This document shows positions 1 through 37,250 of a stretch of 64,000 nt of DNA, piece after piece. The DNA comes from Lophium mytilinum (lineage: Eukaryota), in NCBI GenBank assembly GCA_010093605.1, contig MU004189.1:1-64000 (forward strand), read 5' to 3'. A model generated the notes under the pieces. The model saw nothing but the letters and a program-made list of their open reading frames with translations, had not been told where the DNA came from and did not search any database. Positions within the stretch are counted from its first letter, which is position 1. Every line of letters begins with the position of its first letter. A program made the position numbers and the translations under genes.

Positions 1-95
1 AACCCTAACCCTAACCCTAACCCTAACCCTAACCCTAACCCTAACCCTAACCCTAACCCTAACCCTAACCCTAACCCTAACCCTAACCCTAACCC
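1..95. repeat. Telomeric repeat (CCCTAA)n / (TTAGGG)n, chromosome end
   Basis: About 16 perfect CCCTAA units from base 1, ending abruptly at ...aacccc gtgctagc. Confidence 0.99.
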
Positions 96-114
96 CGTGC
101 TAGCGGGCGACCAA

Positions 115-600
115 TAGTACAGTATAGAAACATCGAGTAAAATTTCGTTACGCGTACTGTATACTTACTAGTAAGCGTATAGTATAGAAGCATCTACTAA
201 AATCTATAAACGCGTACTATATACCTATAAGTAAGCGTATAGTATAGAAGTATCTACTTAAATTTTATTATGCGTACTATATACCTACTAGTAAGTATAT
301 AGTATAGAAGTATCTACTAAAATCCCTAGATGCGTACTATATACCTACTATTAAGCGTATAGTATAGAAATATTTAGTAAAATTTTATTAGGCATACTAT
401 ATATATTTATCTTAGTATATACTATAGAAATATTTATTAAGGCTTTATTAGGTGTACTCTATACTTATATATTAGTATATAGTATAGAAACATTTTTATT
501 AGTCTTATTAGGCGTACTATATATCTATATACTAGTATATAGTATAAAATACTTCTTTAAATTCTATTAAGTATATATCTATTTTAATATATATTATAGA
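115..600. repeat. Subtelomeric 60-bp tandem satellite, ~8 copies, RIP-diverged
   Basis: AGTATAGAA-like start recurs at 121, 181, 241, 301, 361, 421, 481, 541; copies differ mostly by C>T/G>A transitions. Confidence 0.93.
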
Positions 601-3600
601 AATATTTTAAATTATAGTATAGTATTCTTACTAGAAGGCTTTTTATAGAGATTCTTTTAATTATAAATTTATATATTTTTTTTATATATATATATTATAC
701 TAATATTTTTTATAGGGCCTTTATAGAAAGCCTTTCTATAGTAACCCTTATATTACTATAAAAGTAATTATACTTTCTACTTACTATACTTCTAATATAC
801 TTCCCCTACTATAATCTAAATTAAGTAAGTATAAATAAGTTTCTATTATATATCTCTCTATACTTCTAATAAAAATAATAGTTTTTATCCCCCTCTCTTA
901 TCTCTATCTCTCTTTTTCCCTCCTCTAATACTTTTTCTAATACCCTCTTTCTTCTCTCTAATACTTCTTCTAACTTTATTACTATTAACCGCGTATACTT
1001 TTCTTTTACTATCTTTTTTCTAACTATATACCTTACTATTACTACTACTCTATTCTTCCCCCCTACTCTACTTTCTAGAAATAAACTACTTACTATAGAT
1101 AGCCCCGGCGCTAGCGTACTTAGCGCTGCCTACTAATACTCTAGCTATAGTAGCCCTAGCTTACTTACTAGCGCTAGTACCCGCGCCGCTATACTACCTA
1201 GTAGCTATACTATAGCGTTCTTAAAACCCTCTACTATTTTCTACTACTTCTTTATAGATATAGACTTATATATAGCGGGTAGCTATTTCTATATATAGCT
1301 AGAGTACTACCTCCCTTACTATAGCTATATAAGCCGCTTTCTTTAATAGATAGAGTATAGTATAGCTACTAAAAAGAGTATTCTCTAGGCGGTGTAAGGC
1401 TAGTAATAGCTTAGTAGAAAAGTAGGTGCTAGTTTTAAACTTAGTAAAGATTAAAATAGAAATTTTAGAGGCTTAGTAGAATTCTATAAAAATACTAGTA
1501 AAGTTTTTCTAGAGTTTCTTAAAAGTAGTAGTAGTAGAAGTTAAAGTTAAAGTATATTTTTTAGTTTTACTAGGGGTAGAGACTATACCTAAGGCTTTAA
1601 AAGAGAAGAAAAGAGTAAGGCTAAAAGTAGAGATAGCTTCTTTAGCTTCTTTCTTAGAGGTAAAGGGGCTAGTAGTAGTAAGAGAGTAGAGGGAGCTAGT
1701 AGTATAGAGAGTTAAAGTATAGTTTTAAAAGAGTAGAAAGGTATTACTATTAAATAAAAAGATAGATTAAAAAATAGTAAGGGCCTAGTAGTACTAAATA
1801 AAGAGCTAGGTATTTACTAATAAGTATATAGAGATAGAGATAGATTAAAAAGTAAATTAGGCTTAGACTCTAGTAGTAGTAATAGTAGCTTTATACTACT
1901 TTTTAAACTTATTAATACTAAGAAGATTTTATAGCATACTTAGGGTACCTAAAATAGAGCCTCTATATATCTAATCTATTAATAGCGGGGTAGAGTTCTA
2001 ACTACTAAGGGGAGCTATAACCTCTATCTTTCTTTTCTTTTTAAAGCTAGAAAGTAGTATAGTAATTAAGCTTAGTATAAAGAAAGAATAAGAATAATTA
2101 TTACTACCTACGCTAGTATATATATAAGGTTAAAGGCTAGCCTAAGAAGGCTAAGATAGAGTACTAGTTTAATCTATATAAGCTAGGGTAGCTATAGCTA
2201 CTCTACTAGAAGTTATTCTTTAGTACTTAAATAGAAGAGACTCTATATTTATGCATAGCGGGCTAAGTTTATAAGAGGTAAAGTATATTATAGCTTATAG
2301 TTATATAATAGAGCTAGAGCCTATTTTAATTTCTATCTCTTAAATAATCTACTAAACTTTATACTCTTTACTATCTATTAGTAAATTTAAGCTAAAGTAT
2401 AAAAGTCTTATTATAGTATAATAACCTTTATATAAGAAGGCGGCGTATTAGATAATTTCTAGTTAGCCTTTTAATATCTATATTATAGTAGATAACGCTA
2501 GCATAGTAACTATACCTTAAAGTAGCTTTCTTTCTATAATATCTATAATTTTAGGGCTCGCAAGTTAGTAACACAGTAGTAGTAGTAATAGAAGATAAAT
2601 CTTTAGATTTTACTATAGTAGTAAAGGGTAAACTAGTACTATTACTAGGGGTTAGGTCTAGAGGCTCCGCTATAGTAGAAGAAGATAAGACTAATAGTAG
2701 AAGAGTAGAGATAAAGCTATTAAAGAAGAAAATAAGAGTAAGGTAAAGTAAAAGAGTAAAGCCTATTAGATAATTTCTGCATAGGCGGCGTAGAGAGCTA
2801 GAGTATAGTTCTAGAAGAGTAGAAACGCGTTGCTATTAAAGAAGAAAATAGGTTAGGAGATAGCGAGGGCCTAGTAGCGCTAGATAAAGAGTTAGGTATT
2901 TGCTAATAAGCGCGTAGAGATAGGGATAGATTAGAGCGCTACTACTCCTATCTAAGGTTTAAATTTAAAAGTAGATTAGGCCCTACTACTTCTACTCTCT
3001 AGCTATAGCCTTAAACCTTATTTATATAGCTCTTGCCTTCTTCTCTTCTATATTAATCCGCAAGCGCAGAAGCTTCTTATTCTTAGAATTATTCTTAAAA
3101 AACTTATAGTATCTAGGCTACTTATAAGGCCGGGCTTAATCTTAATACTAGGCTTAATCTTTATATTAACTTTATCGGCTAGTTTAGGCTTAATATTAAT
3201 ATTAGACTTAGAAGGTAGGGCGCTATCTCTAGTAGCTTAGAATAGGGGGTTAGCATAGTTATAGAGAGTTTAAGACTTAGTTATAGTAGGCTGCATATTA
3301 AGAGTAGTATTAGTAGGCGTGCCTAGGCTATTACTAAAGAGGGAACCTCTATTTTAATTCTAGATAGTTGCAAGAAGTACTTCTCTCTAGGCACGGATGC
3401 AGGTAGGGTTAGCAGTATCCTCCGCGGTAAGCAGTTTAGTTATATAGGGTTAGTCTATATTAGCTAGCTTAGAAGTTATTTTAGAAATAAATAATAAGAA
3501 CTTCTCTCTAGCGTTTTATACAGCGAGATCCGCGGCATTACTAGGTATATTAGGGTTAAGAAGAGGGTTCTAAGTAATAGTACCTAAGCCTATTAGTGTG

Positions 3601-5299
3601 CCTATTATAGCGGTACTATTCTTAGCGTACTACTCTCCTAAGTTAGTTATATAGGTATTTCTATGGCCTACCGGCTTTAAAACTTTATATACTATTAAAC
3701 TATCTCTCTAAAGTACTTTAAATATAATTAAGAGTCTCTTCTATACTAGTTCTAGCTATTAGTTTACCTATAGCTATAGTATAAAGAGAAATAAGCTAAA
3801 GAAGTAAAGGAAGAGAGGAAGAGTAAATTAGGCGGGCGCTAAAGTAATGCAGGGTATAGTTATATAAACTGTATATTATAGGGACCTACTAGTCCCGCCT
3901 AAGGTAAAATATATATATAGTATAGTAATAAAATAAAACTCTTAGAGCTACTATTTATATATAGTATATAGAGTTAACCTTTAAAGGTTAATTATAAGTA
4001 TAGGTATAATATAAGAGGTTAGCATATAATATACTAAGATTAATAGAAACTAGCGCATTAAACCTTTTTTTAACTACTATCTACCTCTTATAGTATAGCA
4101 GCAGCCCACGCATAATACTATATATAAGTCTTAATTAGTATACTATATACGTCCTTTCTAGAGCGTTCCGGCGGATATTTATAAGATAAGAAGCGGCCTA
4201 ACCTAATATAGAGACGGCTGCAACCCTAAACTAGGCTAAAGTATATAAAATATAGCCCGGCATACTAAGGTTAACGCGTAGTAGCATAGTAACTCTAAAC
4301 GCTAAGAATAATATTTAGTAGGGGTAGATATATCTACATCTGCCTAATATATATATCCTAATAGAGCAGTTAGCTTCTTTTCTTACTACGCCTAATACCC
4401 TGTCTAGGCGCAAGGTTGCAAATACTACCCTAAATTTAGTTGCAAGAAGGAAGCTTATACAGCTAAAGCGCTTATTAAGATAGCTATAAGAATAGAAGTA
4501 AAGAAAAATACTAGAATAAAAGAGCAGTTCTATTTATAATATAGAGACTATTTATAACTATAAGAAAGAGGAAAGTTATATTAAAAGCAATAAATAGTAA
4601 GACTATAACCCCTTAAGAATTACTATCCTTACTAATAATAAGCAGGTCTAAATACATTACTAATAAACTAGAAAGTACAACTATAACACCTAAATTGCCT
4701 TCCGCCGCCTAGTACGTAGAAGACTTAATAATAACACGTGTAAATAACTCTTCTTCTAGTTAGTTTAAATATTATATAATAATATACGCTTTAGGGAACT
4801 ATAGGCAGAATAAAGTTATATATAGCGTGTTAATAGATAGAGTCTATAGAGAGGACTTAGCCTAGCTATATAACTAATATTAGTAAAAAGAGTTAAATTA
4901 TAGGGTATATAATAGTAGATTCTTTACTATAAAAAAGATAGGGAGCATATACTAATAGTATAGATATAATAGAGCGGCATTAGAATATAATTACCCTCCC
5001 TAACTATATAAACTATAGCGGATAAGACCGCCCCCTATAATATAGATAAATAAAATAAATATTATATTACGCATAAAATACGTAAGGCATAGTTATAGTA
5101 GTAAATATTACGCTATATTCTATAGTTAAGTAAGCCGCTATCTAGAGGCTAAATATAAACTAGAAGATTTTAAGAGTATAAAGTATACTACTACTATAGA
5201 GTAGTACTAACTATTAGAGGGTAAAGAATAGAACGCAAGTAAGAAATTAGAATAGTAAAAAGTTAGCAGTACTAAGTAAGTAGGTGCAAACTAATAGCA

Positions 5300-8200
5300 A
5301 GGAAAGTAGTCCTAATTAGAACTGTTAGAAAGAAAAAGAAAAAGATATTAAGAAATACTAAACTAAATTTAAAAAGTAGGGTAAGGGCCTTTATAGAAAG
5401 CCTTTCTATAAAGACCCTACTAGTTATACCTTACTATTAGACTTTTCTAGCGCTATACTAGTCCCCTCTAATTTACTACTATTCTCTTTACTATTAGAGT
5501 TAGTATCTATACCTAATACCGCGGGCGGTTAGCTAATATTAGAATTATTCTTCTACCTATATAGGTCTATTTTTAGTCTAGTAGAGTTTATAGACTTCTA
5601 TATAGTAGCTTTCTTCTTAGTAGCCTTCCTTTTATGCTAAGGGCGCTACTTAGTAATCTCTTTCTCTATTATATACTTATACGGACGATATATAAGGGAT
5701 TTAGATATAGAGTCTTTCTTAGCTACTTTATCCTTCTTTATAGTAGGCTTCTTTTTTATACCTTAGTACTTCTAACTCTTATTAGTATTACTAGAGGATA
5801 TAGTCTTTAAGGTTAGCTACAAGGCCCCTTCTATAAATTCCGGCGGGTTATCTAAGTTACTACTATAGTTACTGTTACGCTTAAAGGCAACTTTAGATAG
5901 CGTAGTATTAAAATCTAGGTAATTATTAAGATACCCCCTATTTTACTTATTAGTCTTAGACGGGACGTTCTCTATATTAATGTTAGGGGTTTTAACATTC
6001 TTCTTATTCTACTTATTACTCTTAGTCTAGTTATTATCTATATTAACGTTAGCTTTTAGTAGTAAATAAAAAACTAGATTATCTATAGAATCCTGCAAGA
6101 AGATAGTAGATATTCCGCGCTGCCTCTTCTTCTATATATTAGGTAATAGGATAGGGTCTATAGAAGGGGTCCTAATAAGGCGTCTATTAAAGGTGCTAAG
6201 AGGGCTAGAAGGTAGAGTTAAAGTAGGTTAACGGGCGGAAGTAGAAGCTACTATAATAGTTAGTACTTAAGTAATATAATAGGCAATACTAAAGGGCCCT
6301 AGTAGAAAGGCTTCCTAAAAAGGCTCTAGGATAAATTCTTACCTATATACTTTGCAAGGAATAAAGTATTATTCTTATACTCTTTACCTTTAGAGTTATT
6401 ACTATTTAGCCTACTAAAAGGGTTATCGCTGTCTATATTACTAAAAATAGCGGGTACTTAATATAAAGAGTTATGCTCCAGCCTATATTAATAGATAAAA
6501 GGGGTATAAGCCTTTCTAGTAGCGCTCTTTATAGGGGTGGGCATATTAGATTTAGTAGAATCTAAGTCTTTAACTATAATAGCAGACTTAAAGTTAGGCT
6601 TGCGCTTCTTAATAGCAGCCGCTAGTGTAGTACTAGCTTTACGCTTCTACTTTAAAGCTTTACTATTTTATTACTCTAGTATCTTTAGCTTTAGCTTTAG
6701 GGTGGCTTTTACTATAAAACACGGATTAGCAAAGTATAAAGAGGCAAGTAGGGCCCTAGTAGAAAGCCTTCCTACTAGAACCTATAAGGGTAAACTTACT
6801 ACTTACAGAATAACGCTTAAGCCTTAAACCTAGCTTATTAATACGCGGTTTCTTAGGCGCTCTACTCGCACCCTTCTCCTACTCTTCTTCTAATTCCAAT
6901 TTAGTAAATTTATACGCTTATTCTTCTTAGAACTTATTACTAAACCCACTAGACTAAAAAGTTATATTACCTTGCGTAAGGGTTATTAGAAATATAAAAA
7001 TATCTTATAGGAAGTTAAAGCGCTTAATATATAATTCTACTAGTATATTTAAAATATCTATTTCGCCTATAATAAGGCGGGGTGCAATACTCTTATTATT
7101 ATAGATTACCTACGCATACTAGCTATCTAGGGTTAGCTTTTCCTTAGAGGTCCCCTCTACCTTAATCTAGTTAGTATTTAACGCAGCAGCAAGACTAGAA
7201 AGCGCTATCTATACCTAGCGCAAGAGAGTAAAGGCATTAAATGTGTTCTAGATAAAGAACGCGGTTACTATAATAGTAAACTTCTAGCTAATCCTATATA
7301 AACGCGCTATTGCCTGCTTCTTAATCTAAATAGAGCCTATAGGGTTAAAAAGATATATATTATAATAAGTAGACTGCAGATTAAGCCTAGCTCTATTAGC
7401 CTAGTAACTAGTAATAAGAATCTTTACTTTAGAGTTAGGGTTGTTAAATAACAAGATAAGGTTATTCCGGTTAGTAGTAGAGAGATTAGAGGCTAGTATA
7501 TAAGTATCTATTTTATAATAGTTAATAATCTTAGTAAGAATTATTTACTTATCTAGGTAGTTAGTTTAGATAATAACCTTCTCTATACGCTTAATAATAT
7601 TATTAGCTAAATAGCATAGTAGTACAGCTACTTTAGGGGCATTATAGATAAAAAGGGTAATAATATAATAAAAGGGTGTAGACTTTACTTTAAAGTCTTT
7701 CTAATTAGGGTTAGTTTAAACGTTCTTATTCCGGGCAATTTGCTTTATTATGCCTCGCAAAACGTCTATTTCCTTTAACCAGTAACCGCTATTATTCTTA
7801 AGAGGGATAATTTTCAGGCCGTCCTTAATCTTATTACCCTCTAAATTTAAAACCTTCTCTCGCGGATATGCTATTATAGCGCGCTTAGAGTAGACTAAAA
7901 ATAGTGTAGTACTTATAAGGTTAAGAGTACGCATAGAGTATATATTAAATGCATAGGTATACTAGCCTATGCAGTTCTTAGTAGAAACTATTAATAACTT
8001 AAGGTAGCTTAGCGATTTATTAGTATAGATAATATAGCCTAGTTTTATAGGCTGTAGCTTAATTACTTACGTAACTAACCGCGGAAGTAATCCTCTAATT
8101 TAGGTAGCAGGATTAGTAGAATTATTTAGGTATATAGAAGGGTATAAGCAAGCAATTATATACTTACTAAAAATTAAGCGCAAATAAAGCCCCTGTATAA

Positions 8201-11100
8201 TCCTAGAGAAATATTAGAAAATTAAAGTAAATAAGAGGAGAGATAAGGGCTCTAGCCGGAAGCCTTTTTACTGGGGCCCTTTATATAATAACTTACAGGT
8301 TAAATAAAGGTAGAATAAAATTTTTAAAAGCCTTATATATATACCGGAAAATTACACCTAAATAGTTATTAGAAAGCTTAAATAGATTATTAGTACCTAG
8401 AATAAACTTAGCTTTACCGGGTTTTAAGCGGTATGTGCGGAATTATAGATACTTATCTCTTAGTTTTATAAAAGATATATAAGTAGGTATATTAGTAATA
8501 CCTATATATAGCAGGGTCCCACTATAGAGTATAGTAAAGTCTAAGTAAAGCTATAACGTAGTTAGGTAGAGATTTACTTAGTTGCTTTTAATAAGCTAGC
8601 ACTTATCTATAAATTAGATGTTAAAACAGCTACTTAAGAGACCGGGCTAGGTGGAGCTTAGATAATATTTAACCTAGTTCTTTAGCTTAGCAAGATTATT
8701 ATCGCTATACTACTTTAATGCAGGCTAGAAACCGTGCTAACTAGCTATTACCTAATAGCTGGCGATTATAATACTCTTAGCATTTATCTTATTTTTAGTA
8801 TTAAATAAGAGATAGTCCCTAGTTAAGATGTTATATAGAAACATAGTGCTATAGAAAGTAACTTAGCCCTTTAATAAATAGATATAGAGCTTAAGTTTAG
8901 AACTAAACTTTATAAGTTTATTTACTATTTAGTATACTAAAACGGGAGGCATAAAAAAAAGGAAGGGCTTTACCAGCCCGGGGTCTTTCTTATCTGCAAC
9001 TTTGCGCTGGCGCTTAGTAATAAGCTATAATTAAATTAGTAGATGCTAAGAGAAACTATTAGGGGGGTAGTAGAAAGGCTTTCTATTAATACTCTTTAAA
9101 GAGAAATTACTTACATATCTAATAAGGGTAGCCATTAAAAATATCTTTCTAATACTAACCTTATCTATAATTAAAGCCCTACTAAGAAAGCCTTTCTATA
9201 TAATATAGTATATATAGTAAGCCCCAGTAATCTACTACTACCTTAAGTAAATATTGCTATTTATTATAATAAGGCGGGGTTCCTAATAGTTATAAATGCG
9301 TAGGGCCTTTATTACTTCTTTAAGGTTATCTAGCTAATAGGCTTTATTAGTTATTAAAAGGCGGAGTGTACTTTATATTATAAGATCTGCCGCGGTTAGT
9401 ATAGTAAAGGGGATAATATCCTTTATATTAATAGCGGTAGCCCTTATATTAGCCTTTATATCTTAGGTATATTTAATACTATCTAGATTAGTATACTTAT
9501 CCTTATTTAGATCTACAGCGCGCATATTTAGGTACTATTTAATAGTATATATAAAATCTTCTACTATCTATCTAATTACCTAATATGCGTTGTATTAAAA
9601 CTTTAATAAGTTCTGGTTAATTATTACTCTAGTGCGCTTAGCATGCGTAATTACTAACTTAAGCTTCTATTTTATAGTGCCGGTAATATACTTAGCGCTA
9701 GTAACATTAATATTGCCTTTCTTCTTATTAACTAGGTTTGCAGTAATTTCCTCTTTAGATAACCTCTAGATAGGGTTATCTACGTTAACCTCTATATTAA
9801 TAGCCGCGAGTTCCTCCTTAGTAAAATAAGAGGGCGACTACTAATAGGGAGGCCTAGAAGGGCCTTAACAGGAAGGCTTTCTATTAATATTTTTACTACT
9901 ATAAGTAATAGTTTTAGCCGGGGTCTTAGGTGCCGGTGCTAGACTAAGCTTTATTTTTTAAAGAATATTCTATATCTTAATTTAGTTCTTAGTATAGGCG
10001 GTCCTGCTAGCTTAAAACAGGCCACTCTTAAATTCTATATTTTTCTTTAATTTAAAAAAGATTCTAAGCGCTTTATTATTAGTAATATTAGCGCGGTTAT
10101 ATAAAAACCTATTAAACTGCTTCCGGTAGTAATTAAAGCATTAACTAATAAATTAAGCTACCTAATCTATAGGTTTATAGTTATCTATCTTAGGCTAAGG
10201 AGTAGTATATCGCTGTAGATTATATAACTCGCCAGTCTTAAAAGCGTTTAGAATAGTAGTAAAACTAGCCCCTTAATTCTAACTATATATAGCGCGCTTT
10301 AGGTCTAAATATCTATCCTTATACTTATTTTAAATTGCTTAGAAATTAGGCTTAGCTAGAATTACTTTAAGTTCTGCTTTTATTTAACTATAAAGCTTAG
10401 CTAACTTTATTCTGCTAGCATACAGCGTGTTTACTAAGGCCTATAACTTCTCTAACTCTTTATCTTTTCTACTACTAGTAACTAGCGCTTAAAGCTTTTC
10501 TTACTCTTTATTAGAGTTTTTAGAGATATTAGAGTTATTACTATAGTTATTACTATCTAGATAAACTACTTTACTATTCGCTAATGTAAGCGTCTCTAGA
10601 TCTATTGCAGTAGCCGGCTAATTGCGCTTTAAATTAATATAGGCCTTAACCCTTAATTTAGTAACTAGTAGAGAGGTAGAATTTAGATCTTCTAGTACTT
10701 TAGAAGAAGTAGATAGTTTCTTATAGCTATTTACTAGGTTAGTTACAGGTAATATGCGCAGGAATGTAACCTTTACTACTACTTTACTAGGGTTCCTATT
10801 ACTTAAGATATTTATAGCTAGCCTATTAATATATTAGCTTATCTTAAATAATAGAAGAAAGAAGGCAGGTAAAGGGCCCTAGTAGAAAGGCTTTCTACTA
10901 AAACCCTTTATACTATGCCGGGTATTTTTAGTATTATTATTTTCTTAATATTTTCTGCCGCCGCATCTTTAAAATTAAGGTAGACTAATCTACTAAGACT
11001 AGTAAAGGGCCCTAGTAGGAAGCCTTCCTGTAATAATTCTTATAATACGCTTACCTTACTCTACTCTTAGAGAAATTGTAATGGAATAAACCTATTAGCA
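5300..11100 (-). pseudogene. RIP-inactivated, intron-containing SNF2/SWI2-family helicase/ATPase gene (core ~7,240-9,180; outer limits uncertain)
   Basis: Minus-strand translation gives RALIIDKVSIRKI (~9,140-9,180; de-RIP GALIxDEVGIGKT, motif I), KPFLFFMPPVLVY* (Ia), FIDKC*LIKS (8,596-8,607 core; DECQLxKS, II), SGTLL (8,512-8,523; SGTPL, III), ARLNLQ (AGLNLQ, V) and KQAIARLYRIS*K (EQAIARLHRIGQK, VI, ~7,280-7,325). Order and spacing fit SNF2. GTAAG...CTAAY...TAG introns at ~9,046-9,114 and ~8,203-8,296. Confidence 0.85.
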
Positions 11101-11148
11101 GAATTAGCTATAATATAACTTAATTTTACCTACTAGATAGTAAACTTA

Positions 11149-11780
11149 NNNNNNNNNNNNNNNNNNNNNNNNNNNNNNNNNNNNNNNNNNNNNNNNNNNN
11201 NNNNNNNNNNNNNNNNNNNNNNNNNNNNNNNNNNNNNNNNNNNNNNNNNNNNNNNNNNNNNNNNNNNNNNNNNNNNNNNNNNNNNNNNNNNNNNNNNNNN
11301 NNNNNNNNNNNNNNNNNNNNNNNNNNNNNNNNNNNNNNNNNNNNNNNNNNNNNNNNNNNNNNNNNNNNNNNNNNNNNNNNNNNNNNNNNNNNNNNNNNNN
11401 NNNNNNNNNNNNNNNNNNNNNNNNNNNNNNNNNNNNNNNNNNNNNNNNNNNNNNNNNNNNNNNNNNNNNNNNNNNNNNNNNNNNNNNNNNNNNNNNNNNN
11501 NNNNNNNNNNNNNNNNNNNNNNNNNNNNNNNNNNNNNNNNNNNNNNNNNNNNNNNNNNNNNNNNNNNNNNNNNNNNNNNNNNNNNNNNNNNNNNNNNNNN
11601 NNNNNNNNNNNNNNNNNNNNNNNNNNNNNNNNNNNNNNNNNNNNNNNNNNNNNNNNNNNNNNNNNNNNNNNNNNNNNNNNNNNNNNNNNNNNNNNNNNNN
11701 NNNNNNNNNNNNNNNNNNNNNNNNNNNNNNNNNNNNNNNNNNNNNNNNNNNNNNNNNNNNNNNNNNNNNNNNNNNNNNNN
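11149..11780. other. Assembly gap (N run)
   Basis: Run of n. Confidence 1.
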
Positions 11781-11799
11781 CTCTTTATATCTTATACTA

Positions 11800-14700
11800 A
11801 TTACTTTACTATCTTTCTTATTAATAATTCTTCTTTATAACGCCGCCCCTACTAGTCTACCTATTAATACTTAAATCTATATACTCCTTAGAACTCTTCT
11901 ACTTAAGCCTTATTCTTCTAGGCCTCTTACCCCGAGTCCTCTAAGTCCTCTATTTCTAAGCTGTAGTTACCTAAACTCTCTTTATACTTATACTCTTTAT
12001 CTAATAACTAACTACTTATATCCCCCTCTTACTCCTTCTATATTACTAAATAATTCCGGAATTCTTTAATTATTAGAATCCTGCCTAAATAAGCCCTTAG
12101 GCTATTTAGTGTATAGTACTTAAACCTAAGCTAGATATATTTTAGATTAACTTAACCTCTAGGGCCTATAATATTATCCTCTATTATTATTATCTTTAAC
12201 TTTCCTAGGCTTTCCTAGGTTATATTCTATACTTCCTTTATAACTACGTCCATGCTAAGGTTAACTACCCCTCCTTAAGCCTATTCTTTAATATATTAGC
12301 TTAGTTAGGCTACCTTATAGTAGTAGCTATTTAGTAGTTGCATATAGATCTACTATATATTTATAATTATATCTCTTTCTTTAATATTATCTTATATATC
12401 TTTAGAGTTGTTTTATTTAGCTTAACGCGTAGTTAAAATTTTATTGTTATTATATCTTAAAAGAACCTAGAGTAATAAGGCAGCTCTTACTTATAGATTA
12501 TTAAGGAATTATTCTACCGTTTTTAGTAACGCTTTATTTCTAATTATTACATTTAATCTTCGCAATTTTATGCGGAAGGGACTATTATTCTATTTTTAAG
12601 TTTCTGCAGCTAGATCCGTAATATTAAATAGCGGCTAGACTTAATTAATCTAGCATCTAGTTAAGTGCCTTAGATAATTTATATTACTATTTCTAGCTAT
12701 ATTCTATATGTAGGCGTAGCTTACTATAAGTTCTAACTTTCTATATAGCTTTATAAGCATATTAGAATAAAGCGTAACTATAGATCTATTTAAAATACTC
12801 TTAAGAAATTAGTTATATAGTTCTTTACTCTTCTATTATATCTTAGTATTTCTATCTTCTTCTATATACTATCTACTTAGAAGCTTATATATATTAGTAT
12901 AGTATACCTTAATAATAAGCGCAGCTGCCTTACCTATTTATGGCGGTGCTAATTGCTAATCTTTTTACACTTTAGTCCTATTTTCGCGTTAAATAGCTAG
13001 CGTGTATTATGCTATAATACTATACTATAGATACTGCATCTCTATATTCTTTCTAGTAAGAGATACCTAAATCTAAGCTTTAGTAAATATAGCTTAGAAT
13101 TAATTTCTAAGGCCGGCTTGCAGTTAATTAACGCCTTAAGGGCTAAGTTGTAGGGGCGTTATTATCTAATCTAAGTACTCTAACTTTAGCTAAGCTATGC
13201 CATACTTCTTAAGGGAGTTTAATAACCTAAGGCTATATAAGGTTATAGGATTCCGGGGGTCTTTTTAATTTATCTACTCTTTTTTCTATAGTACGGATAA
13301 TTAAGTGGGATTACTATATCTAGCAGTAATTTGCGTAAGGCGGATATAAAGAGATACTAAATAACTATTTACTAGCTATTTATCTAGTATTACTACATGC
13401 CTAGTATTACGCCCGGGAGTAACCTAAAGAGATAGTACCTAGAAAAGAAATACCTAGTAATTAAGGTTTATAATAGTAAAGGCATTAACTTCTTCTATAG
13501 AAAGAACCTAGTAGGGGTAATAAGGCTTACTACTATTATCTAGCCTATTCTTTATAGTAAATTTAGGACTTACGCTTTCTTTAAGTTACTTAAGTATAGT
13601 AAGAAGTACTTGGAACTCGGTTTAAACCCTATAGAATAAGTATCTATCTCTCTAGAGTATAGTATAGTGGCGTTAGAGAATAGTAGCAAGACTATTCTAA
13701 AGCTGTTTTCTTTTTAATAATCCTCTAGAGCTACCTGCCGCTTTAAACCACTGCTTAATTATTTTAGTTAAGAATGCAAGAGCTTCTAGTTAAGTATTAT
13801 AAAAGGGCGTAATATTCTTAATAGGTAACTTAAGTATAATCTTATTACTATTATAGATTTTATTATATGCTATACTACTAATATAGCTATAGTTACCTAC
13901 TTAGAGCTCTACCGTTAAAGATAACGCGCCCTAGATAAGATAGTAGGGGTATAATATTATATAAATCTTTTCTTTTCCGCTATTATAGAAGTAAATAGTC
14001 TAGTAGTTATTACAGCTAGTTTTGCATAGAAGGGTAACCCCGGTATCTAGCTAATTAGTAGTTAAAATATCTTTATATCTATAGTTAATCTATATCCCCT
14101 TATCTAGCATATTAATTAGGTTTTTATTAAAAGTAGTAGTTAAAGTACATAGTAGCTAATCCCTACTTTAAATTATACTTAAGGACTTATATGCTATTTT
14201 TAGATTATAACCCGAGACTACTAGGAATACTCCTTTAAATAAATCTTTAGGTATAGTATCTATTCCTGTAAAGTTTTCTGCGTTATAAAGAACTTAGTCC
14301 TAGAATTCTTAGAGTTAATACTATAGAATTATATACTTAGTATTAATATAAGAGTCTCTAGATAATATTATATATTTTTCTTTCTTAATGCTTACTTTAC
14401 CCTATATAATATTAAAACTGTATAGTATATACTACTACTTATCGGGTATTAGAGTATACTTTACTGCAGGTAAGATAATATTATTAAGCCAAGCTGCTTG
14501 CATTATATCTAGTAGATGTAAAGTATCGCCCTTCTACTTATTTAGTGTTAGTATCTAGGGGAAAAATATATAAGTTTTAAATTAATACTTATACCTATAC
14601 CCTATATAAAGCTACTTTATTATATAGAGCTTATGGCCGCGTATTATAATATATTAGTTTTAAGTAATACTTTAGAGAAAGAATAGTTATAGAGATAGTA

Positions 14701-15000
14701 AGAAGTATAAATTATAGGCCGCTAAAGTAGAGATGCTAATAATAACGCTATTAATATTATATACTTGCCGGATTTTAATCTCTTTATTCACTATAAAGCT
14801 AGCTTTAAACCTTATAAAACTAAGCCTTAGAGTTTCTATATTACTAGTTTCTCCGCTTAACATTAATTTCTATGGGACATTATTAAAGTTATTAGGATTA
14901 TCCTCTCTCTATAATAGCTCTAGTTAGCTTATTAGATAGAAGGCTGCATTAGCTGTAATAGGCTCTTATTAGAAGGAAAGGTTCTAAGCTAGAAGAAAGC
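11800..15000 (-). pseudogene. RIP-inactivated long ORF of unknown function, possibly a mobile-element protein
   Basis: Long coding-like minus-strand frames with RIP-type stops: KIRQVYNINSVII (de-RIP RQVYDIDS), FKTYIFFP, AWLNNIILPAVKYTLIPDK**YILYSFN (AWLDDIILPAV...QQHIPYSFD). Confidence 0.55.
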
Positions 15001-15132
15001 TAGTAACTTAGCTAAGGGATCTGCTCTAAGGAACTATTATATAGTTACTTACTATATTATAATATTAGCTACTATATTATTTAAATAGAAAGAGTTAAGA
15101 TATATAGTAAGTATACTAGACTTCTAACGCTA

Positions 15133-15672
15133 NNNNNNNNNNNNNNNNNNNNNNNNNNNNNNNNNNNNNNNNNNNNNNNNNNNNNNNNNNNNNNNNNNNN
15201 NNNNNNNNNNNNNNNNNNNNNNNNNNNNNNNNNNNNNNNNNNNNNNNNNNNNNNNNNNNNNNNNNNNNNNNNNNNNNNNNNNNNNNNNNNNNNNNNNNNN
15301 NNNNNNNNNNNNNNNNNNNNNNNNNNNNNNNNNNNNNNNNNNNNNNNNNNNNNNNNNNNNNNNNNNNNNNNNNNNNNNNNNNNNNNNNNNNNNNNNNNNN
15401 NNNNNNNNNNNNNNNNNNNNNNNNNNNNNNNNNNNNNNNNNNNNNNNNNNNNNNNNNNNNNNNNNNNNNNNNNNNNNNNNNNNNNNNNNNNNNNNNNNNN
15501 NNNNNNNNNNNNNNNNNNNNNNNNNNNNNNNNNNNNNNNNNNNNNNNNNNNNNNNNNNNNNNNNNNNNNNNNNNNNNNNNNNNNNNNNNNNNNNNNNNNN
15601 NNNNNNNNNNNNNNNNNNNNNNNNNNNNNNNNNNNNNNNNNNNNNNNNNNNNNNNNNNNNNNNNNNNNNNNN
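15133..15672. other. Assembly gap (N run)
   Basis: Run of n. Confidence 1.
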
Positions 15673-18049
15673 TATCTATAGAGTATTCTAGAGGGTAAGG
15701 ATAGTATATACGCCTATATATATATATAGTATAGCTATAGGTTTAAGAAACGCTTTATAGAGATAGCGTATAGCGGGTAGAATTTAGCCTAGAGCTCTAT
15801 TATTATTATTTATAGCTTACTAAGGTATTCCTACGCTAGAAGGTAGTAATAGAGAGGGCAATACCTCTCTAGCATCTAGAGGCGGTAGTAATATAGGTAT
15901 ATAAGGAGATAATATAGAAGATGCAGGTAATAGTAACTCTAATACTGCCTCTTCTACTTCTTTATCTACTTAGGCTACTTCTTTATTTACTTTACTTTCT
16001 TTAGCCGCTTCTTCTTCTTTTTTAACTACTGCTCCCTTAATAGTCTATATAATAGCATGCTTACTACTATTACTCTAATTTTACTCTATAGCTTCTATTA
16101 ATTCTATATTACTTTAAATTTTAGGTATATATTAGGCCGCTCTTAACTTACTAGAGTATATACTACTACTAGTAGACTACTAGGTATAAGAAAGTTATAT
16201 TAGTTAAATAGGTTAAGAGGTTAGAGGAGTAAGAGAATAAGTACTACTATAAGTAGCCCGCCCTAGAGTAGAATATTAGGTGGGTTTAGTAGATAGAGAA
16301 GAAGTAGTAGAATAGATACTACTATAGATAGACTACTATAGAGAAGTATATTATATAGGTTATATAGGTTAGATAGATAGAGAAGGAATAGTAGAATAGG
16401 TACTACTATAAGTAGACCGCTACGGAGAAGTATATTACATAGATTAAGTAGAGGTAGAAGGTAATAATTCTTCTATTAAAATAGGTTCTACTTAAGTTTA
16501 TTAGAACCTAACTATAAATACTAGAAGATTATAAAAGATATACTAATTATAAGTTATATAATAGTTTTCTCTAAAGGCTTCTAAGGTGCAATTAGTTATT
16601 AAAAGGGCGTAGGCGCAGGGCGGGTAGAATAAGGGGCCCTAATATTTATACTAGAAAGACCTCTAGAGTTTTTAAAGATAATTAGAAATAGATCTAGAAT
16701 AGAAGTAGAAGTAGGCTTACTAGCCTCTTCTACTACAGCTATTTAGTCTATAGCCCTCTTCTTTTTATCTCTCTTGCGTTGGTTTAAATCCACTATTAAA
16801 CGTAATTTAGCTGCTTTTTACTCTTCTTTATTCTAGTACTTTTAGGGGCGTTCTATGCTAACTACTAGGTATAGTAGTAAGGGGGATAATAGTTTAGAAT
16901 ATAGAGCTAAGAAGTAGAAAGCGGTTAAGGAGTATAATTAGTTAAAAATAAGAATTTATTAATATTCTTATTATAGGGCTTACTCCGCCTAACCCGTTTT
17001 AACACCCCTTATAGATACTGCCACTCGGTTAAGGTTACTAGGAAAGGGCCCTAGTAGAAAGGCTTCCTGCGGTAGCCCTATTAATTACTTTATCTATAAA
17101 TATTATATAAACTATATTCTACCCTTTACTTTATATATTTTATTTAATGCAGCTAAAATTTCTATTATATAAGAATACTATCTAGCAGTAACCTATACTA
17201 AGGCAAGGCTATTATAATATAAAACTCTTTCTATTATATCTATTACCCTCTATAGGCACCTACTACTAGGACTTCGCCTTTTCTATAATGCTTTAAATTT
17301 AATTGCGTATACTATATATAGTATTATAGCTTTATTATAGTATCTTAATATCTAGAAGTTATTATATATAGTAGTAGAAGGCTGCTTAATTATAGAGCTA
17401 TACTCTATGCTACTAGCCGCTCTCTTTTCTTACCCTCTGCACCTACCTAGAGCTATAACTATAGCCTATAAAATATTTCTAAATTGCTAGAATACTATTA
17501 TATTGCATAATAAGTAATTTTCCTTATAAATATCTTTAACCTTATATTATAGTAGTTCTATATAGCGCTAGTTAAGGTCTTTATTAAGTATAAGGCTAGC
17601 ATTATACTAAACTCTTTAAGTAACTTCTATTATTTAGAATCTTACCTCTATATATAACTGCTACTACTACTACAGCCTATATATTAATTCTAAGTTAATA
17701 GATCGCTATTGCATTATATATTATATATAATTCTTTATATATTTCTTCTATACTATATTATAGTAGTTGCATGTAGTAGTAGTTGCACTAATTTTTAAGC
17801 GCGAGGCTATTCTTACGCTAAACCCTTTAAGTAATTTCTATTCTATACCTGCGCACCCTGCGGCCTCTCTATACCTACCTTAAGCTACCACTACAGCTTA
17901 TAAATTAAATTAAAGTTAATAGAACGCTATTATATTACGTTCTAAGTATTATTCTTTGCATGCATACTCTATTTTATATTATAGTAGTTAAATGCGGCGG
18001 TGCAAGGTTATACTACACGTAATTCTTAAAGGTTAATTTTCTCTATATT

Positions 18050-21000
18050 AAACTTGCTTCTCCCTACCTAATTTTAACCCTTTAGCCCCTATAATGTCCT
18101 ATTATTAAAGAACCTAATAATACTAAAGACTTCCCTTAGCTTAACTATAATAGAAAATCTCTTCCTTCTAAACTAGTTTTACTAGATAAACTACCTAAAT
18201 ATAATATCTAGTTTATATTTATATACGTCTATTCTACTATAGTAAAATAAGATAAGGGTGTAGTAATAACTATTACTTTATAAGACTTTAAGTAACTAGA
18301 CTAGCCTAATAAAATAGATAAGTAACACGCCTACAGGCGCTAGGTAGTAAATCTTGCAGGCGTTACTATAGAAGATTACTATTAATTTAAGAAAAAAATA
18401 ACTAAATTACCTTATACTAAAGATTAGCTATAGTAGAAAGTTCTACCCTTTTTCTACTAGATTTTAGATACCTTTAATCTATAAGCTATAAATAAACTAC
18501 TACTATATAGGCCTAGCGTAGACTATACTATTAACTTTAAAGACCTAAATATAAAACCTTCTATCTCTTACTAATACAGCCTCTCTTATAATAAGCTGCG
18601 GGCCGTTAAAGCCTATATTAATAAGATGCTTAGAAAGAGTTTTATTTACTCTAGCACATTACTATTTATAGCGCCTATTATTATTATCTATAAGCTAGGC
18701 GGAGGACTCTATATTTATATTAATTACTAATTACTAAATAAAATTATAATTAAAGATAGGAACGCCCCTTCTCTCTTATATAATATAATTATGTAGCTTT
18801 ATAAAGCTAAGATATACTCTATCTTTAATATTATTGCCGCATTTAATAACATCCATATTAAGAATAGTAACTAGCCTAAGATAGCCTTTTATACTTAATA
18901 TAGCGTCTTTAAGTTTAATATTATACCCTTTAGCTTATATAACGCCCCCGGTATATTCTAGTTATTTATTAACTCTATTCTATAAATATATTTTAATATC
19001 TACTATATAGCCTATATAGATAATATTCTTATATATAGTAATAATAAGAAAGACTATAAAAGAAACTATATAAACATTCTTACTATACTATATAACGCTA
19101 GCCTCTATCTTAATATAGATAAGTATTACTTCTTAGTTAAGAGGGTTAAATACCTAGGCCTAATTATTATACCTGATAGAATAGAAATAGACCCCGCTAA
19201 AGTTAGTACTATTTAGAACTAGAAGCTACCCCGTAATATTAAGGATATATAATTATTTCTTAGTTTTTATAACTTTTACTAATAGTTTATTATAGAATAC
19301 TTATAAATTACTATACTACTTACTAAGCTTATAAAGAAAATAATAGAATAAGGTAACTTTCCGCTACTTACTAATAGCTTAGCAGCGTAAGCCTTTAAAA
19401 AGCTTAAAGCCTTCTTTCTTTTAGCGCTAGTTCTTACCTATTTTAATCTAGATTTAGATTATATTCTTAAAACTAATACCTCTAACTATATAGTAGCCGC
19501 GATTCTTTTATAATAGGAACTAGATAGAATTCTATGTTCTATTACCTTTCTATTAAAAAAGATAACTCTAGCTAAGTATAATTATAAGATCTATAATAAG
19601 GAATTACTTGCTATTATATAGGCCTTTAAAGAATAGCGCCCTAAACTTATAGATATTATTAACCCTACGCTTATTTAAATAGATTATAAGAACCTAGAAT
19701 ACTTTATATTATTAAAGTAGCTTAATTACTGCTAAGCCTATTAGGCTAAATACCTCTTACAGTTTAATTTTATTCTAAACTGGCAACTAGGTAAATAGTT
19801 AACTAAGCCTAATAGCCTTACTTATAGGCCTAGTAATATTCTAGATAATCTAAATAACTCTAGAACTATACATTAAATATAGACAGTTTTAAAAAAGAGA
19901 AACCTACTAGAAGGAATATACTAAGCCCTCTAGCTCGCCAGTATACTTCTTAATAAATAGAAAGTATTTATTATCCAGCTTACTAAGCTAATATATAAAG
20001 TTATAGAATAATACCCTATAGATATTCTATATATTATTCTAGTAGCTAATAGAATAAGAGTAAAAAAGCGCTTAACTAAGGTTATAGCTAATTATAGTAA
20101 GTTAGATAAAGATCTATAGAATGCTGCCCCTAAAGTTACTATACTAATTACCCCTAAACCTATAGATCCTACCGCTAAAGAAGAAGCGCTAAAGGTATCT
20201 AAGCCTAGTAATAAGTTAGATAAGAACTTACTAGGAAATTATACTAATAATACTACTATTTAGTAGATTAATTATATATACGCAGAGAATAATATTCTCT
20301 AATATATTATATACGCTAAAGAGATAGGTAAATAATAAATTCCTCTTAAACTTATTTAGAAATAAGAAATTAAAATTAAGCTTAGCAACTATAAAATCTA
20401 TAAAAATAGGCTATTTATTAACAGCCGCCTATATATTCTATATAACGCAAAGCTCTATATATAATTAATTAAGGAAGCCTATAACTCTCTCCCTAGAGGC
20501 TATACTAAAAGAAACTCTCTCTACTATTATCTCTCCTTCTAGTACTACTAGCTAGGTATTATAAACTCTATTACTATATATATTAACGCCTACCTAATAT
20601 ATAAACGCACTAAGGTCTATAAAAATAGTAAATATAGCTTACTTAAGCTATTACCTATTCTAAATTAATACTAGACGGATATCTCTATTAACTTTATTAC
20701 TAAGCTGCCCCCTTATACTATTAAGGGCCGTATATACTAATACGTTATAGTAGTTATTAACTAACTTTCTAAAAAGTATAAGTTTATTCTACTAGACTCT
20801 ATAGAGCTAGAGGACGTTACGTAGGCCTTTATTAACTAGATCTAGCGCAAGAAAGGCTATCTAGACTATATTATATCTAACTATAGCGCGTAGTTTATAT
20901 TCTTCTTTTAGAAGCATCTATATAAGTATATAGAAATATACCTAAAGCTATCTACTATAGCCTATCTAGAGACTAATAGATAAACTAAAATTATTAACGC

Positions 21001-22514
21001 AGGCCTAAAGTAGTACCTGCGCGTATATATCTATTACTTATAAGATAACTAGGTAAACCTTATTACCTTTACTAAATTTAAAGTAAACGCTAATATTAAC
21101 TAGTCTACTAGAGTATTATCTTTTAAAGCTACTAAAGGCTATACGCCCTATAGTAGGCTAGAACTATTATTACAGGGTATTATTATTCTAGGACCTAAGC
21201 GATAAGGCGTTAATGTAGCTAAAAAGCTAGTTACCTATATTTATAACCTGCGCGAGTTTCTTAAAGGTAAACTACGCTAGAATTAGTTAAAGATAAAGAA
21301 GCTAGCTAACTAAAACCGTCTACCTACCCTAGAATTTAAGGTTAATAATATAGTTATACTTAATACTAAGAATATTTATACTATATAGCTAAGTAAGTCT
21401 CTTAACTATAAAAATCTTAGTCCTTTTTATATAACACGGGTTATTAATAATATAGCCTATAAGCTAGAACTTTCTAAATCTATAAAGGGAATCTTTCTAG
21501 TATTCTACCCCTAGCTACTTTATTAAATTAATAAGACGCCCCTTCTAGAATAATATCTAGAACCTCTACCTATACTTAAGATAAAAGAAGATAGCTTTAT
21601 AGAATAGTTCTATATTAATAAAGTTCTTAACTTCTAGTTTAACGGCCGCTAACTAGATCTATATATAGGTAAGAAGCCTTACTTAGTCTATAAGATAGCC
21701 TAGACTAGGTATAATAACACCCGGCCTAAATAAAAGCCCTATTAGAATACTAATAGTTATAATAAACTTCTTATAGAATACTATATAAAGCATAGTCTTA
21801 AAGTAGAACCTTATTTAATATTTAAAACGCCTAAATAGAAGGTTGCGAAGATAATAGATAAGAGCGTAAGCGCTGCCGCGGCGATAGTAGGCCTATAGAA
21901 TATTCTTAGCACTAGCCTAAGTAAGTATAAATAGCAACCTTATTAGGTAGCTAAGTTATTTTATAAGAAGGCTATTCTATATAGGTAATCTAAAGTAGAA
22001 CTCTAATAGGTAGAAGCTAATAATAGGCCTTAAGTTAATTTATATAGTCCGCTTGCAGTACTTAAGAATAACTATAATAATAAATATAAAAATAGAAAAA
22101 ATAGAAATAATAGAAATAATAGATATAGTAATACTATAGATAGTAAGTATATAAATAGTAAGGCTATATAAGTAGCTTAATAGAAATAGAATAGAAAGAA
22201 TAGAGAAGCTATAACTATAATATATTATAAGCCTTATAGAACTTTAGCTTTTAAAGAGGAAGGTAGTATTATAGTATAAACCTAGAATTATAATAATTAT
22301 ATACTAAGGTTATATATAGCCTCTTATATAACCTAAGTAAGACGCTAGCCTAAGGCGCTAGGCTGCGGCCTGTGCGCTGGTGTTAAACTATAACCTCTTA
22401 AGAGCTTCTAGCTCTCTCTCTCCTTCTTAGCTTAGATTTTTATAATAGTTAATATACCTTATTACTTATATTATATCGGCCCCCTATATATAGGTATAAT
22501 CTATTAATATAATA
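18050..22514 (+). mobile_element. RIP-degenerate, 5'-truncated Ty3/Gypsy chromovirus-type LTR retrotransposon (RT-RNaseH-integrase-chromodomain, 3' LTR)
   Basis: Plus frame: APIIIIYKLGGGLYIYINY (KPGGGLRxCVDY, ~18,670-18,730), AYIDNILIYS (YxDD at 19,013-19,024), KTNTSNY (ETDASDY, ~19,470), NYKIYNKELLAI, TDISINFITKLP (integrase, ~20,675), YKIA*TRYNNTRPK*KP (chromodomain, ~21,690-21,740), purine tract at ~22,252-22,266. Confidence 0.93.
22267..22514 (+). repeat. 3' LTR of the Gypsy element (RIP-mutated TG...CA ends)
   Basis: Starts TATTATAG right after the purine tract and ends TATAATA, consistent with RIP-mutated TGTTAC...GTAACA inverted termini; ~250 bp. Confidence 0.7.
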
Positions 22515-36435: not shown

Positions 36436-36761
36436 TTTTGCTGTGATGGTGAGCGTGAAGAGAAAAGGAGAGAAGGTGAGCAAAGACCGCTGGTGGTTAG
36501 CAGTCAGACGGTGTGCGACACGACAAAGAAGAGTCGTCACGCGCCGGCGGCCCCACTGGTAGCAGCAAAGAAACGCTGGCGAGCGAGACTACGGTGGAGT
36601 GGAGTTGAAGCCGGCGACTGCGAAAGTGCCAGCAAGTGAAGAGGGGTGGTGATGTAGCGGAGCTTGTCGGTGTTGTGGAGGATGCTTCTGCTCAGGCCGC
36701 AGATGAGGAGTCGCGGTTGATAAAGTTAGCGTGCGCTCAGGCCTAGTTAGCGTGCTCGGGG

Positions 36762-37175: not shown

Positions 37176-37250
37176 GCCGCCCGCATCATTCGCATCGAGG
37201 CACAGGCATGCAGGTCGAGTGAATAGCTGCATTGCCTCCCACGCCTCGCA

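Follow-up and report, generated by a model that had tools for sequence, protein, structure and literature searches.

A private 35-bp palindrome and a candidate Rep_trans-like nicking enzyme in a chromosome-terminal helicase element of Lophium mytilinum

The telomere-linked helicase (TLH) regions of Magnaporthe oryzae, with their helicase-associated repeats (PMC1635262), and the host-specific subtelomeres of Fusarium and other fungi (10.1101/721753) are described as helicase blocks common to many chromosome ends, with a discrete centromere-side boundary, telomere-like motifs and private repeats. The HAR-D repeat of M. oryzae holds a 23-bp imperfect palindrome (PMC1635262), and subtelomeres bearing a MYND gene and hypothetical proteins of 1,255-1,543 residues are listed in the Fusarium paper (10.1101/721753). 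In the available text of both papers the spread of these regions is put down to recombination and no transposase is named. Rolling-circle initiators of the Rep_trans type, such as RepD and RepC of the pT181 plasmids, RepSTK1 (PMC4797284) and the archaeal Rep-Arvir (PMC13107129), share, in a fixed order, conserved acidic metal ligands, a catalytic Tyr with Lys, and Arg-x-Glu. Their catalytic fold is a TBP-like curved beta-sheet, and their nicking is metal-dependent and leaves a covalent 5'-phosphotyrosine. RepD dimers bind a palindrome specific to their plasmid and recruit a helicase (PMC4797284). According to the available text of a 2026 report, Rep_trans is apparently restricted to bacteria, plus a distant archaeal family (PMC13107129). 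Helitrons, including those of Paramecium chromosome ends (PMC13085455), have one precise 5' end, a simple target-base preference and a helicase partner, and the Paramecium elements are confined to chromosome ends; their HUH Rep is fused to a Pif1 helicase and their ends are 5'-TC and CTRR-3'. Dothideomycetes introner-like elements (PMC4457414) and symmetrical stwintrons (PMC8469720) are longer-than-usual introns with hairpin potential, the former being near-identical end to end and present in hundreds of unrelated genes (PMC4457414).

The first 64,000 nucleotides of L. mytilinum contig MU004189.1 (the window) begin with a RIP-killed element of ~18.1 kb that resembles each of these systems in part (Table 1). 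As in TLH regions, collinear copies are common to many chromosome ends and stop at a discrete inner boundary with telomere-like motifs, and the element has private repeats. It differs from them in its helicase, which is SNF2-type and not RecQ-type (DEAD/Helicase_C/OrsD), in having dispersed palindromes instead of tandem arrays, and in that a candidate nicking enzyme and a terminus conserved across fungi were identified. The SNF2 gene matches the Pfam families Helicase_C (E-value 1.5e-6 to 4.9e-6) and SNF2-rel_dom (E-value 0.007). A search for close relatives of an SNF2 exon returned two distant helicases and nothing else, and the intact SNF2 relatives at two metagenome loci, L097 and L144, are distant (E-value 6e-4) and carry another palindrome. 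A MYND-like CxxC pattern seen by eye at about 2473-2552 had no Pfam match.

Table 1. Features of the terminal element in the window
Feature	Position	Strand	Remarks
Telomere repeat (TAACCC)n	1..95		caps the outer end of the element; from sequence
RIP-inactivated ~18.1-kb terminal element	96..18095	-	genes read towards the telomere; collinear copies elsewhere
60-bp tandem repeat block	118..537		adjoins the telomere; repeat families D1, D2, D10
Palindrome, degenerate full-length	621..655		non-coding or without intron assignment; matrix score and sister copies
Palindrome	714..748		near the telomere, without intron assignment
Predicted intron, 118 nt	5312..5429	-	acceptor uncertain; downstream frame not discriminating
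Palindrome	5384..5418		within predicted intron 5312..5429
Broken SNF2-family helicase gene	5430..10966	-	~1,690 codons, five large exons; neither the true start nor the last exon is certain; spliced model
Well-supported predicted intron, 92 nt	6251..6342	-	donor, branch point, acceptor and frame change concordant
Palindrome	6293..6327		within intron 6251..6342
Well-supported predicted intron, 88 nt	6712..6799	-	splice signals and frame
Palindrome	6750..6784		within intron 6712..6799
Well-supported predicted intron, 94 nt	8203..8296	-	SNF2 frame changes across it
Palindrome	8246..8280		within intron 8203..8296
Well-supported predicted intron, 90 nt	9025..9114	-	splice signals and frame
Palindrome	9061..9095		within intron 9025..9114
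Palindrome	9859..9893		longest exon, in frame, low-complexity stretch; same frame on both sides
Predicted intron, 91 nt	10823..10913	-	donor weak, branch point good
Palindrome	10873..10907		within predicted intron 10823..10913
Predicted intron, 88 nt	10967..11054	-	donor good, branch point not found
Palindrome	11006..11040		within predicted intron 10967..11054
Broken gene 2, fungal family without Pfam match	12379..14929	-	intact relatives have a modelled N-terminal domain like that of Rep_trans initiators; candidate palindrome reader
Small basic ORF, GRP-R/K start and basic helix	16668..16856	-	similar ORF precedes gene 2 in relatives
Palindrome	17045..17079		upstream of the small basic ORF; outside any recognisable intron
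Precise inner end, telomere-like repeats	18063..18095	-	conserved in relatives from other fungi

The inner end is fixed and starts with TTGTA, and the opposite end is the telomere. The L. mytilinum genome has 32 such inner ends, 20 on the plus strand near left chromosome ends and 12 on the minus strand near right ones, with different flanks among the 30 examined. Among 61 metagenome loci that encode gene-2 relatives, this terminus was matched 19 times, always on the gene-2 strand (shuffle mean 0.2), and a purine stands 5' of it in 19/19 matches. A precise 5' end, a simple target-base preference, a helicase partner and confinement to chromosome ends are common to this element and the Helitrons, whereas the Helitron 5'-TC and CTRR-3' termini were not found. 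HUH Rep and Pif1 domains were also looked for with Pfam; in the frames scanned, the only helicases matched were of SNF2 or DEAD/OrsD type, and gene 2 matched no family.

The ten 35-bp palindromes reported by the initial annotation are all real, with 17-bp arms around one central base and 9 to 16 of the 17 arm positions complementary at each of the ten coordinates. A matrix built from the ten copies scores them at 37-54 bits (32-53 when each is left out in turn), far above the best value, 17.5 bits, from 200 dinucleotide shuffles of the RIP-affected region. Among three partial copies proposed in addition, the one near 631 proved to be a full but degenerate palindrome; the other two are no copies, that near 6507 being a half-site within coding sequence and that near 9175 scoring 0.3 after pooling of copies. 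Sister copies reveal 13 sites per element, two of which coincide with N in the window. Seven of the 13 are in predicted SNF2-gene introns (four well supported), one is in a coding frame, and five are in gene gaps or without intron assignment. Two gaps of ~5 kb have no sites, and one of them spans gene 2. The whole 43-Mb genome has 113 forward and 112 reverse matches (reversed control, 0 and 0); the matches listed, about half of these totals, all fall inside element copies, as do 17/17 sites of a separate set. The sites are not parts of longer mutual duplications, but the 18-kb block as a whole is duplicated, each site keeping its fixed place.

Each half-site consists of AGGG, eight loose bases and GGAAG. 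Transversions are concentrated in the eight central arm positions (24/26), with only 2/26 in the nine positions of the outer and inner blocks. The left, telomere-side arm had been described as the better conserved, which is so in most sites and not in all. The arms do not covary: a site's own arms pair no better than randomly combined half-sites (157 vs 156 exact; 203 vs 199 as purine/pyrimidine, p=0.11), and the same is seen in unmutated DNA of the relatives L097 and L144 (228 vs 226 over 20 sites). The centre base on the coding strand is G in seven sites and C in six. Lack of arm covariation, two conserved blocks and a G:C centre in either orientation together fit a protein-binding site in double-stranded DNA. 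The putative dimeric, probably element-encoded binding protein suggested by the initial annotation is favoured by these indirect tests and by the confinement of the listed sites.

The best candidate for such a protein is gene 2. The N-terminal model of an intact gene-2 relative (pLDDT 90.9) had its best structural matches, among 48,161 chains, in two Rep_trans rolling-circle initiators, 4CIJ (Z 6.7, rmsd 4.7, 179 aligned residues) and 4CWC (Z 6.1, rmsd 5.8, 172 aligned), Z scores of 6-7, below 8, being in the range that the comparison tool grades as possibly generic; the third-ranked match had Z 4.8 over 59 residues. Seven residues (D83, D85, D304, Y385, K389, R465, E467) are near-invariant, each in 53-56 of 56 family sequences, and follow the order of the Rep_trans active site in the available text of PMC4797284, with motif spacing different from that of RepD. 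The likeness of the modelled domain to Rep_trans rolling-circle initiators is moderate. Gene 2 differs from these in its size of ~1,000-1,450 residues, its large insertions and its lack of detectable sequence similarity to them. Pfam gave no family for the relatives P0003 and P0006 at E<=1, hence no PF02486, a match that Rep-Arvir and like distant Rep_trans members also lack (PMC13107129). No match was obtained with the gene-2 model by Foldseek on PDB and viral libraries, with the family in HMM searches, with five relatives in PHROG, or in viral contigs searched for gene-2 relatives; the PDB sequence search gave no relevant match and ESM Atlas no usable one. Fold searches with a truncated 869-residue model, lacking the N-terminal strands, returned helical bundles only and were unhelpful.

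Palindromes of other sequence accompany gene 2 elsewhere. Among the 61 metagenome loci, many of which come from few samples and so are not independent, 28 carry one of two other private palindromes: the second in 3 loci (20 sites; shuffles 0) and the third in 25 (103 sites; shuffle mean 1.05, maximum 3). No locus has both, and 33 loci, many of them short or heavily mutated, have neither. Relatives of the L091 type have DEAD, Helicase_C and OrsD domains beside gene 2; since RecQ-type and SNF2-type elements both possess private palindromes, what they have in common is not the helicase. Neither viral contigs searched by pattern, nor metagenomes searched by exact match to a single two-block pattern, nor any intact relative examined yielded the window's own palindrome. 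Look-alike palindromes centred on GGAAG are present in the mutated DNA next to relatives that bear a different palindrome in their own body, and for this reason the pairing of palindrome and gene 2 is not cleanly one-to-one. An iterated matrix for these look-alikes gave 19 matches, two of them offset duplicates, against 0-1 in shuffles, which is weak evidence as the matrix was trained on its own matches.

We consider it rather probable that the palindrome is a lineage-private site in double-stranded DNA, likely read by the gene-2 product, in an undescribed fungal element that spreads in a rolling-circle-like, Helitron fashion. The best reading of the sites is as docking places for the gene-2 protein. 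A protein with two-fold symmetry would meet, in each half-site, two contact blocks separated by roughly one helical turn; its likeliest identity is a gene-2 product with a basic N-terminal part, a Rep_trans-like nicking domain and a large helical C-terminal part. About a dozen sites would have been retained by selection where coding permits, in introns, gene gaps and a low-complexity exon, and would act in cis to load the enzyme onto the element that encodes it or raise its concentration there, or would serve in its autoregulation. A dozen spread-out sites in a eukaryotic chromosome differ from the one origin of Rep_trans plasmids.

It is unlikely that the sites have another reader, either a host transcription or chromatin factor or a separate small basic protein, which would regulate how the element's genes are expressed or silenced, with no role in transposition. 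The gathering of 10/13 sites within 6.4 kb, over the SNF2 transcription unit and the sequence upstream of it, would suit such a regulator, as would the four operator-like sites of L091, all in gene gaps, and the basic-helix ORF preceding gene 2 in many relatives. However, for a host factor one has to explain why none of the listed matches in 43 Mb lies outside element copies and why three unrelated palindromes exist in three lineages, both of which are better accounted for by a co-evolving, element-encoded reader. As to a separate basic protein, one (P0011) of 150 family proteins has the basic ORF and gene 2 fused, so that this ORF may be the first exon of the gene-2 protein. The likeness of the window's small ORF to the basic ORF of relatives was judged by eye, BLAST giving no match.

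The position of the sites in introns, predicted from splice signals and reading frame, raises a further alternative, namely RNA hairpins acting in splicing or RNA processing, or the core of a self-copying introner-like family that seeded the SNF2 introns. Each of the seven predicted introns holds one palindrome and six are 88-94 nt long; several sites fold at -17 to -22 kcal/mol on the transcribed strand, where the 3' arm is in most cases the better one; look-alikes in other fungi lie 4-12 nt past a donor in 8/14 sites checked; and L097 and L144 have long SNF2 ORFs without interruption. In the seven intronic sites G.U pairs are commoner than A.C mismatches (14 vs 7), but RIP C-to-T changes mimic G.U pairs. 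Hairpins would not explain the lack of compensatory changes between arms, nor a loop base that, in the transcript, is randomly G or C. Intron bodies beyond the palindrome are only weakly alike (3' bodies, mean z 0.8 over 21 pairs, maximum 2.9), and the distance from donor to palindrome varies from 6 to 19 nt. What is common here is 35 bp within one element, unlike the whole-intron similarity of introner-like elements, and the matches listed include no copies in unrelated host genes. Five sites are outside clear introns and one is exonic, at 9859-9893, where the sole candidate intron, of 43 nt, would shift the frame. The equivalent palindromes of intact relatives lie in coding frame or gene gaps: 4/12 sites of L097 and three of L144 are in frame within open ORFs, and a palindrome-encoded peptide is present in 4/150 family proteins. 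The pattern is not the one expected of RNA hairpins or of introners, and we regard this alternative as quite improbable. Both the location of most sites in predicted introns and the host element, with its precise end and candidate nicking enzyme, go beyond the initial annotation.

The RAYT protein spreads REP sequences, and a typical short fungal intron is ~35 nt shorter than the palindrome-bearing introns here. A very small non-autonomous insert that a nuclease encoded by the element has spread locally and that introns tolerate, with no present function, the second proposal of the initial annotation, would suit this intron length, the constant 35 bp, random orientation, unrelated flanks and recurrence of palindrome sub-types between sites, but is highly improbable given the position-specific rather than uniform decay, the absence of visible target duplication at the palindromes, the lack of listed matches outside the element, and in-frame copies retained in relatives at a cost to the protein.

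Returning to the docking-site reading, movement would probably follow the Helitron fashion, the enzyme nicking the fixed end and joining it 3' of a target purine, and copying may be helped by the helicase carried as cargo, of SNF2 type here and of RecQ type in other elements. In this genome copying would run out to the telomere, and therefore only terminal copies of the same polarity would persist. The element family may copy itself with an enzyme fold whose known occurrences are confined to rolling-circle replicons of bacteria and archaea. More tentatively, an undescribed class of DNA transposon of eukaryotes, common among ascomycetes, could be involved, with rolling-circle strand transfer by a non-HUH tyrosine nuclease of Rep_trans fold, interchangeable helicases (RecQ/TLH or SNF2) and a lineage-private palindrome co-evolving with the enzyme; in that case its one-ended insertions would account for some or all of the TLH subtelomeres of fungi. 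A literature search, with most subscription journals, Repbase and supplements outside its scope, returned no description of a fungal Rep_trans-like element or of this palindrome.

This offers a testable alternative to recombination for the helicase blocks capping most chromosome ends in many filamentous fungi. Its parts are named (a candidate enzyme, a conserved terminus and a private putative binding site) and all are present in the intact natural relatives L097, L144 and L089-L091, while the three unrelated palindromes constitute a natural specificity-swap experiment. If the fold assignment is true, Rep_trans-type initiators extend to eukaryotes; if it is false, an element-wide private palindrome invading introns and coding frames in three lineages still needs explaining.

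The palindromes were also considered as general nick or target sites, a role that we reject because, of five internal junctions that were mapped, only one lies within a palindrome. At the 11006-11040 site, one sister array shows a junction to a new element end, 8 bases inside the palindrome.

The window is a left chromosome end of the fungus, with telomere repeats followed by an RIP-inactivated element. The ten dispersed 35-bp palindromes claimed in the initial annotation are all present where it placed them, and its partial copy near 631 is a degenerate eleventh copy, whereas the two near 6507 and 9175 proved not to be copies. A matrix built on the ten sites scores them at 37-54 bits (32-53 in leave-one-out), against a top score of 17.5 in 200 shuffles. 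In the own genome (43 Mb), forward matches to three patterns numbered 113, 17 and 99, with 0 for reversed controls; among the matches listed, about half of them for the 113-match and 99-match patterns, every one lies inside an element copy. The element, an 18.1-kb block, is collinear at many chromosome ends and carries 13 palindrome places, the same in each copy; pooled element copies provided 176 palindrome site copies.

Features of the window, of other contigs of the genome (C) and of sequence loci, mainly metagenomic, with gene-2 relatives (L)
Feature	Location	Remark
Telomere repeats	window 1-95	from sequence
Element, window copy	window 96-18095	
Eleventh palindrome copy	window 621-655	degenerate
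143-bp direct repeat, two copies	window 1705-1847, 2791-2933	inside element
Interior match to window ~2990-3640	C10:843924-844594	74%, less mutated; sole sizeable non-terminal element piece seen
Gene 2, broken	window 12379-14929	minus strand
Direct repeats, 75-84-bp period	window 16225-16460	three times
Candidate intron, 77 nt	window 16907-16983	no palindrome; upstream of small basic ORF
Direct repeats, ~215-bp period	window 17435-17994	three times
RIP'd relic, multi-copy	window ~18100-22500	directly inside element's end; interior-site matches 83-87%
GC-rich 21-bp tandem repeat, short	window 23560-23620	at sharp RIP'd/gene-rich border
41-bp inverted repeat pair	window 36759-36799, 37138-37178	338 bp apart, 80% complementary; gene-rich ordinary DNA
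Head-to-tail arrays at left ends	C5 18096-18600 (L153, L154); C8, C16, C17, C22	
Fixed end joined to telomere-like repeat arrays	L089:124, L091:121	intact RecQ-type relatives
Mutated look-alike palindromes	L126:82; L131:4144, 5539, 5844, 6924, 7013; L142:6894; L099, L113, L114, L116, L119	

The minus strand of the element holds a broken SNF2-type helicase gene. By splice signals and frame, seven palindromes (named by their start) lie between donor and acceptor in predicted introns, 88-94 nt long in six of the seven. Sites 9061, 8246, 6750 and 6293 have a clear donor, branch point and acceptor; the three weaker cases are 11006 (lacking a branch point), 10873 (poor donor) and 5384 (uncertain acceptor). 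The splicing-implied frame is the fewest-stop frame in 5/5 large exons, an agreement that is not a blind test since the splice sites were picked with the translations already seen. Site 9859 is exonic and in frame, and the remaining five of the 13 fall in gene gaps or have an ambiguous placement. The palindrome-free 77-nt candidate intron implies that the site is absent from some introns of the element.

Gene 2, the candidate reader of the palindrome, belongs to no Pfam family and has 237 relatives; among ten looked up, the three named ones are ascomycete hypothetical proteins. A metagenome scan yielded 61 loci with relatives, many from few samples, in which a small basic ORF is followed by gene 2. 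In L089-L091, L107, L109, L110 and L122 the helicase linked to it is RecQ-type and has an OrsD domain; in L097 and L144 gene 2 is linked to an SNF2 gene. The window's own palindrome is absent from every intact locus among them. Private palindromes were sought in 37 of the 61 loci, guided partly by motifs already seen, and two were then counted in all 61: AAGTTGAC-N4-GTCAACTT occurs in 3 loci (20 sites; shuffles 0) and a TTGGCATG-centred type in 25 (103 sites; shuffle mean 1.05), with both together in none and neither in 33. Four of the 12 sites of the unmutated L097 lie in frame within its SNF2 and gene-2 ORFs. Because RecQ- and SNF2-linked relatives have private palindromes, in L097 partly in frame, a dispersed private palindrome is a trait of the family that depends on neither introns nor helicase type. 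A complication is that mutated DNA beside some relatives, whose own body has the second type, contains look-alikes of the centre of the window's palindrome. Mutated palindromes centred on GGAAG/GAAAG-S-CTT, with T-rich arms, are seen in other fungi's repeats; of 14 examined, 8 lie 4-12 nt after a donor and are followed by a branch point and AG. They may represent a lineage that is sister to the window's palindrome.

Motifs D-x-D, D, K-x-Y-N-x-x-K and R-x-E are near-invariant in the gene-2 alignment. Their order recalls Rep_trans initiators, the rationale (written down only after the fold result) for folding the N-terminal domain of the L091 relative alone (pLDDT 90.9). Among 48,161 chains, the two best structural matches are the Rep_trans proteins 4CIJ (Z 6.7) and 4CWC (Z 6.1), moderate values over 172-179 residues each; the third-ranked chain (Z 4.8) is a 59-residue helix match. 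Foldseek (PDB and viral libraries) and HMM searches returned no match, and by predicted fold and motif order the gene-2 protein is a candidate member of Rep_trans. RepD is described as dimeric, binding a palindrome specific to its plasmid and recruiting a helicase (PMC4797284). The reading we consider probable is that the gene-2 protein would dock at the palindrome on its own element, that the fixed end would be moved by Helitron-like strand transfer, and that the survivors in this genome would be terminal copies only. That a host regulator or a separate small regulator reads the palindrome appears unlikely.

The left and right arms of a site resemble each other no more than half-sites paired at random (identity 157 vs 156; by purine/pyrimidine class 203 vs 199, p=0.11), and the L097 palindromes likewise show no arm covariation. 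The nine positions that make up the outer AGGG and inner GGAAG blocks account for only 2 of 26 transversions, the eight positions between them for 24. Every site has a G:C pair at its centre, whose transcript-strand base is G in 7 sites and C in the other 6, and outside the palindrome the intron bodies are barely alike. Such a pattern is that of a symmetric double-stranded site in which each half has two contact blocks. Two observations speak against it: at intronic sites G.U pairs outnumber A.C mismatches (14 vs 7), an excess that RIP is able to mimic, and the transcript's 3' arm is usually the better one. An explanation by an RNA hairpin or introner core is distinctly less probable. A neutral micro-insert is very improbable. 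Tests of membership place the element outside both introner-like elements and Helitrons; it is laid out like telomere-linked helicase regions, without their RecQ gene. No description of such an element was found in the literature searched.

At its fixed end the element breaks off abruptly at 18095. Such ends occur 32 times in the own genome, 20 of them on the plus strand close to left contig ends and 12 on the minus strand, placement being established for all contigs but one. Flanks differ among the 30 ends examined, six of which join a complete inner end head-to-tail to a truncated earlier copy. One array join runs through two telomere repeats, and T is the target base before the join in 4/5 internal joins. 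The 61 loci contain 19 terminus matches, two of them one physical site, all on the gene-2 strand (shuffles 0.2), mostly 2.4-3.6 kb upstream and with a purine directly 5' in 19/19. Since the terminus is kept at ~30% protein identity to the window's gene 2 while flanks vary, it points to an enzyme-defined end. In L090 and L140, near-identical to L089 and L091, the fixed end is joined to other sequence.

A strong RIP signature and AT-rich DNA extend to ~23.5 kb of the window, beyond which lie ordinary genes, e.g. MCM2 and two glycosidases. The relic next to the element, read by eye, is a putative gypsy-like LTR retroelement.
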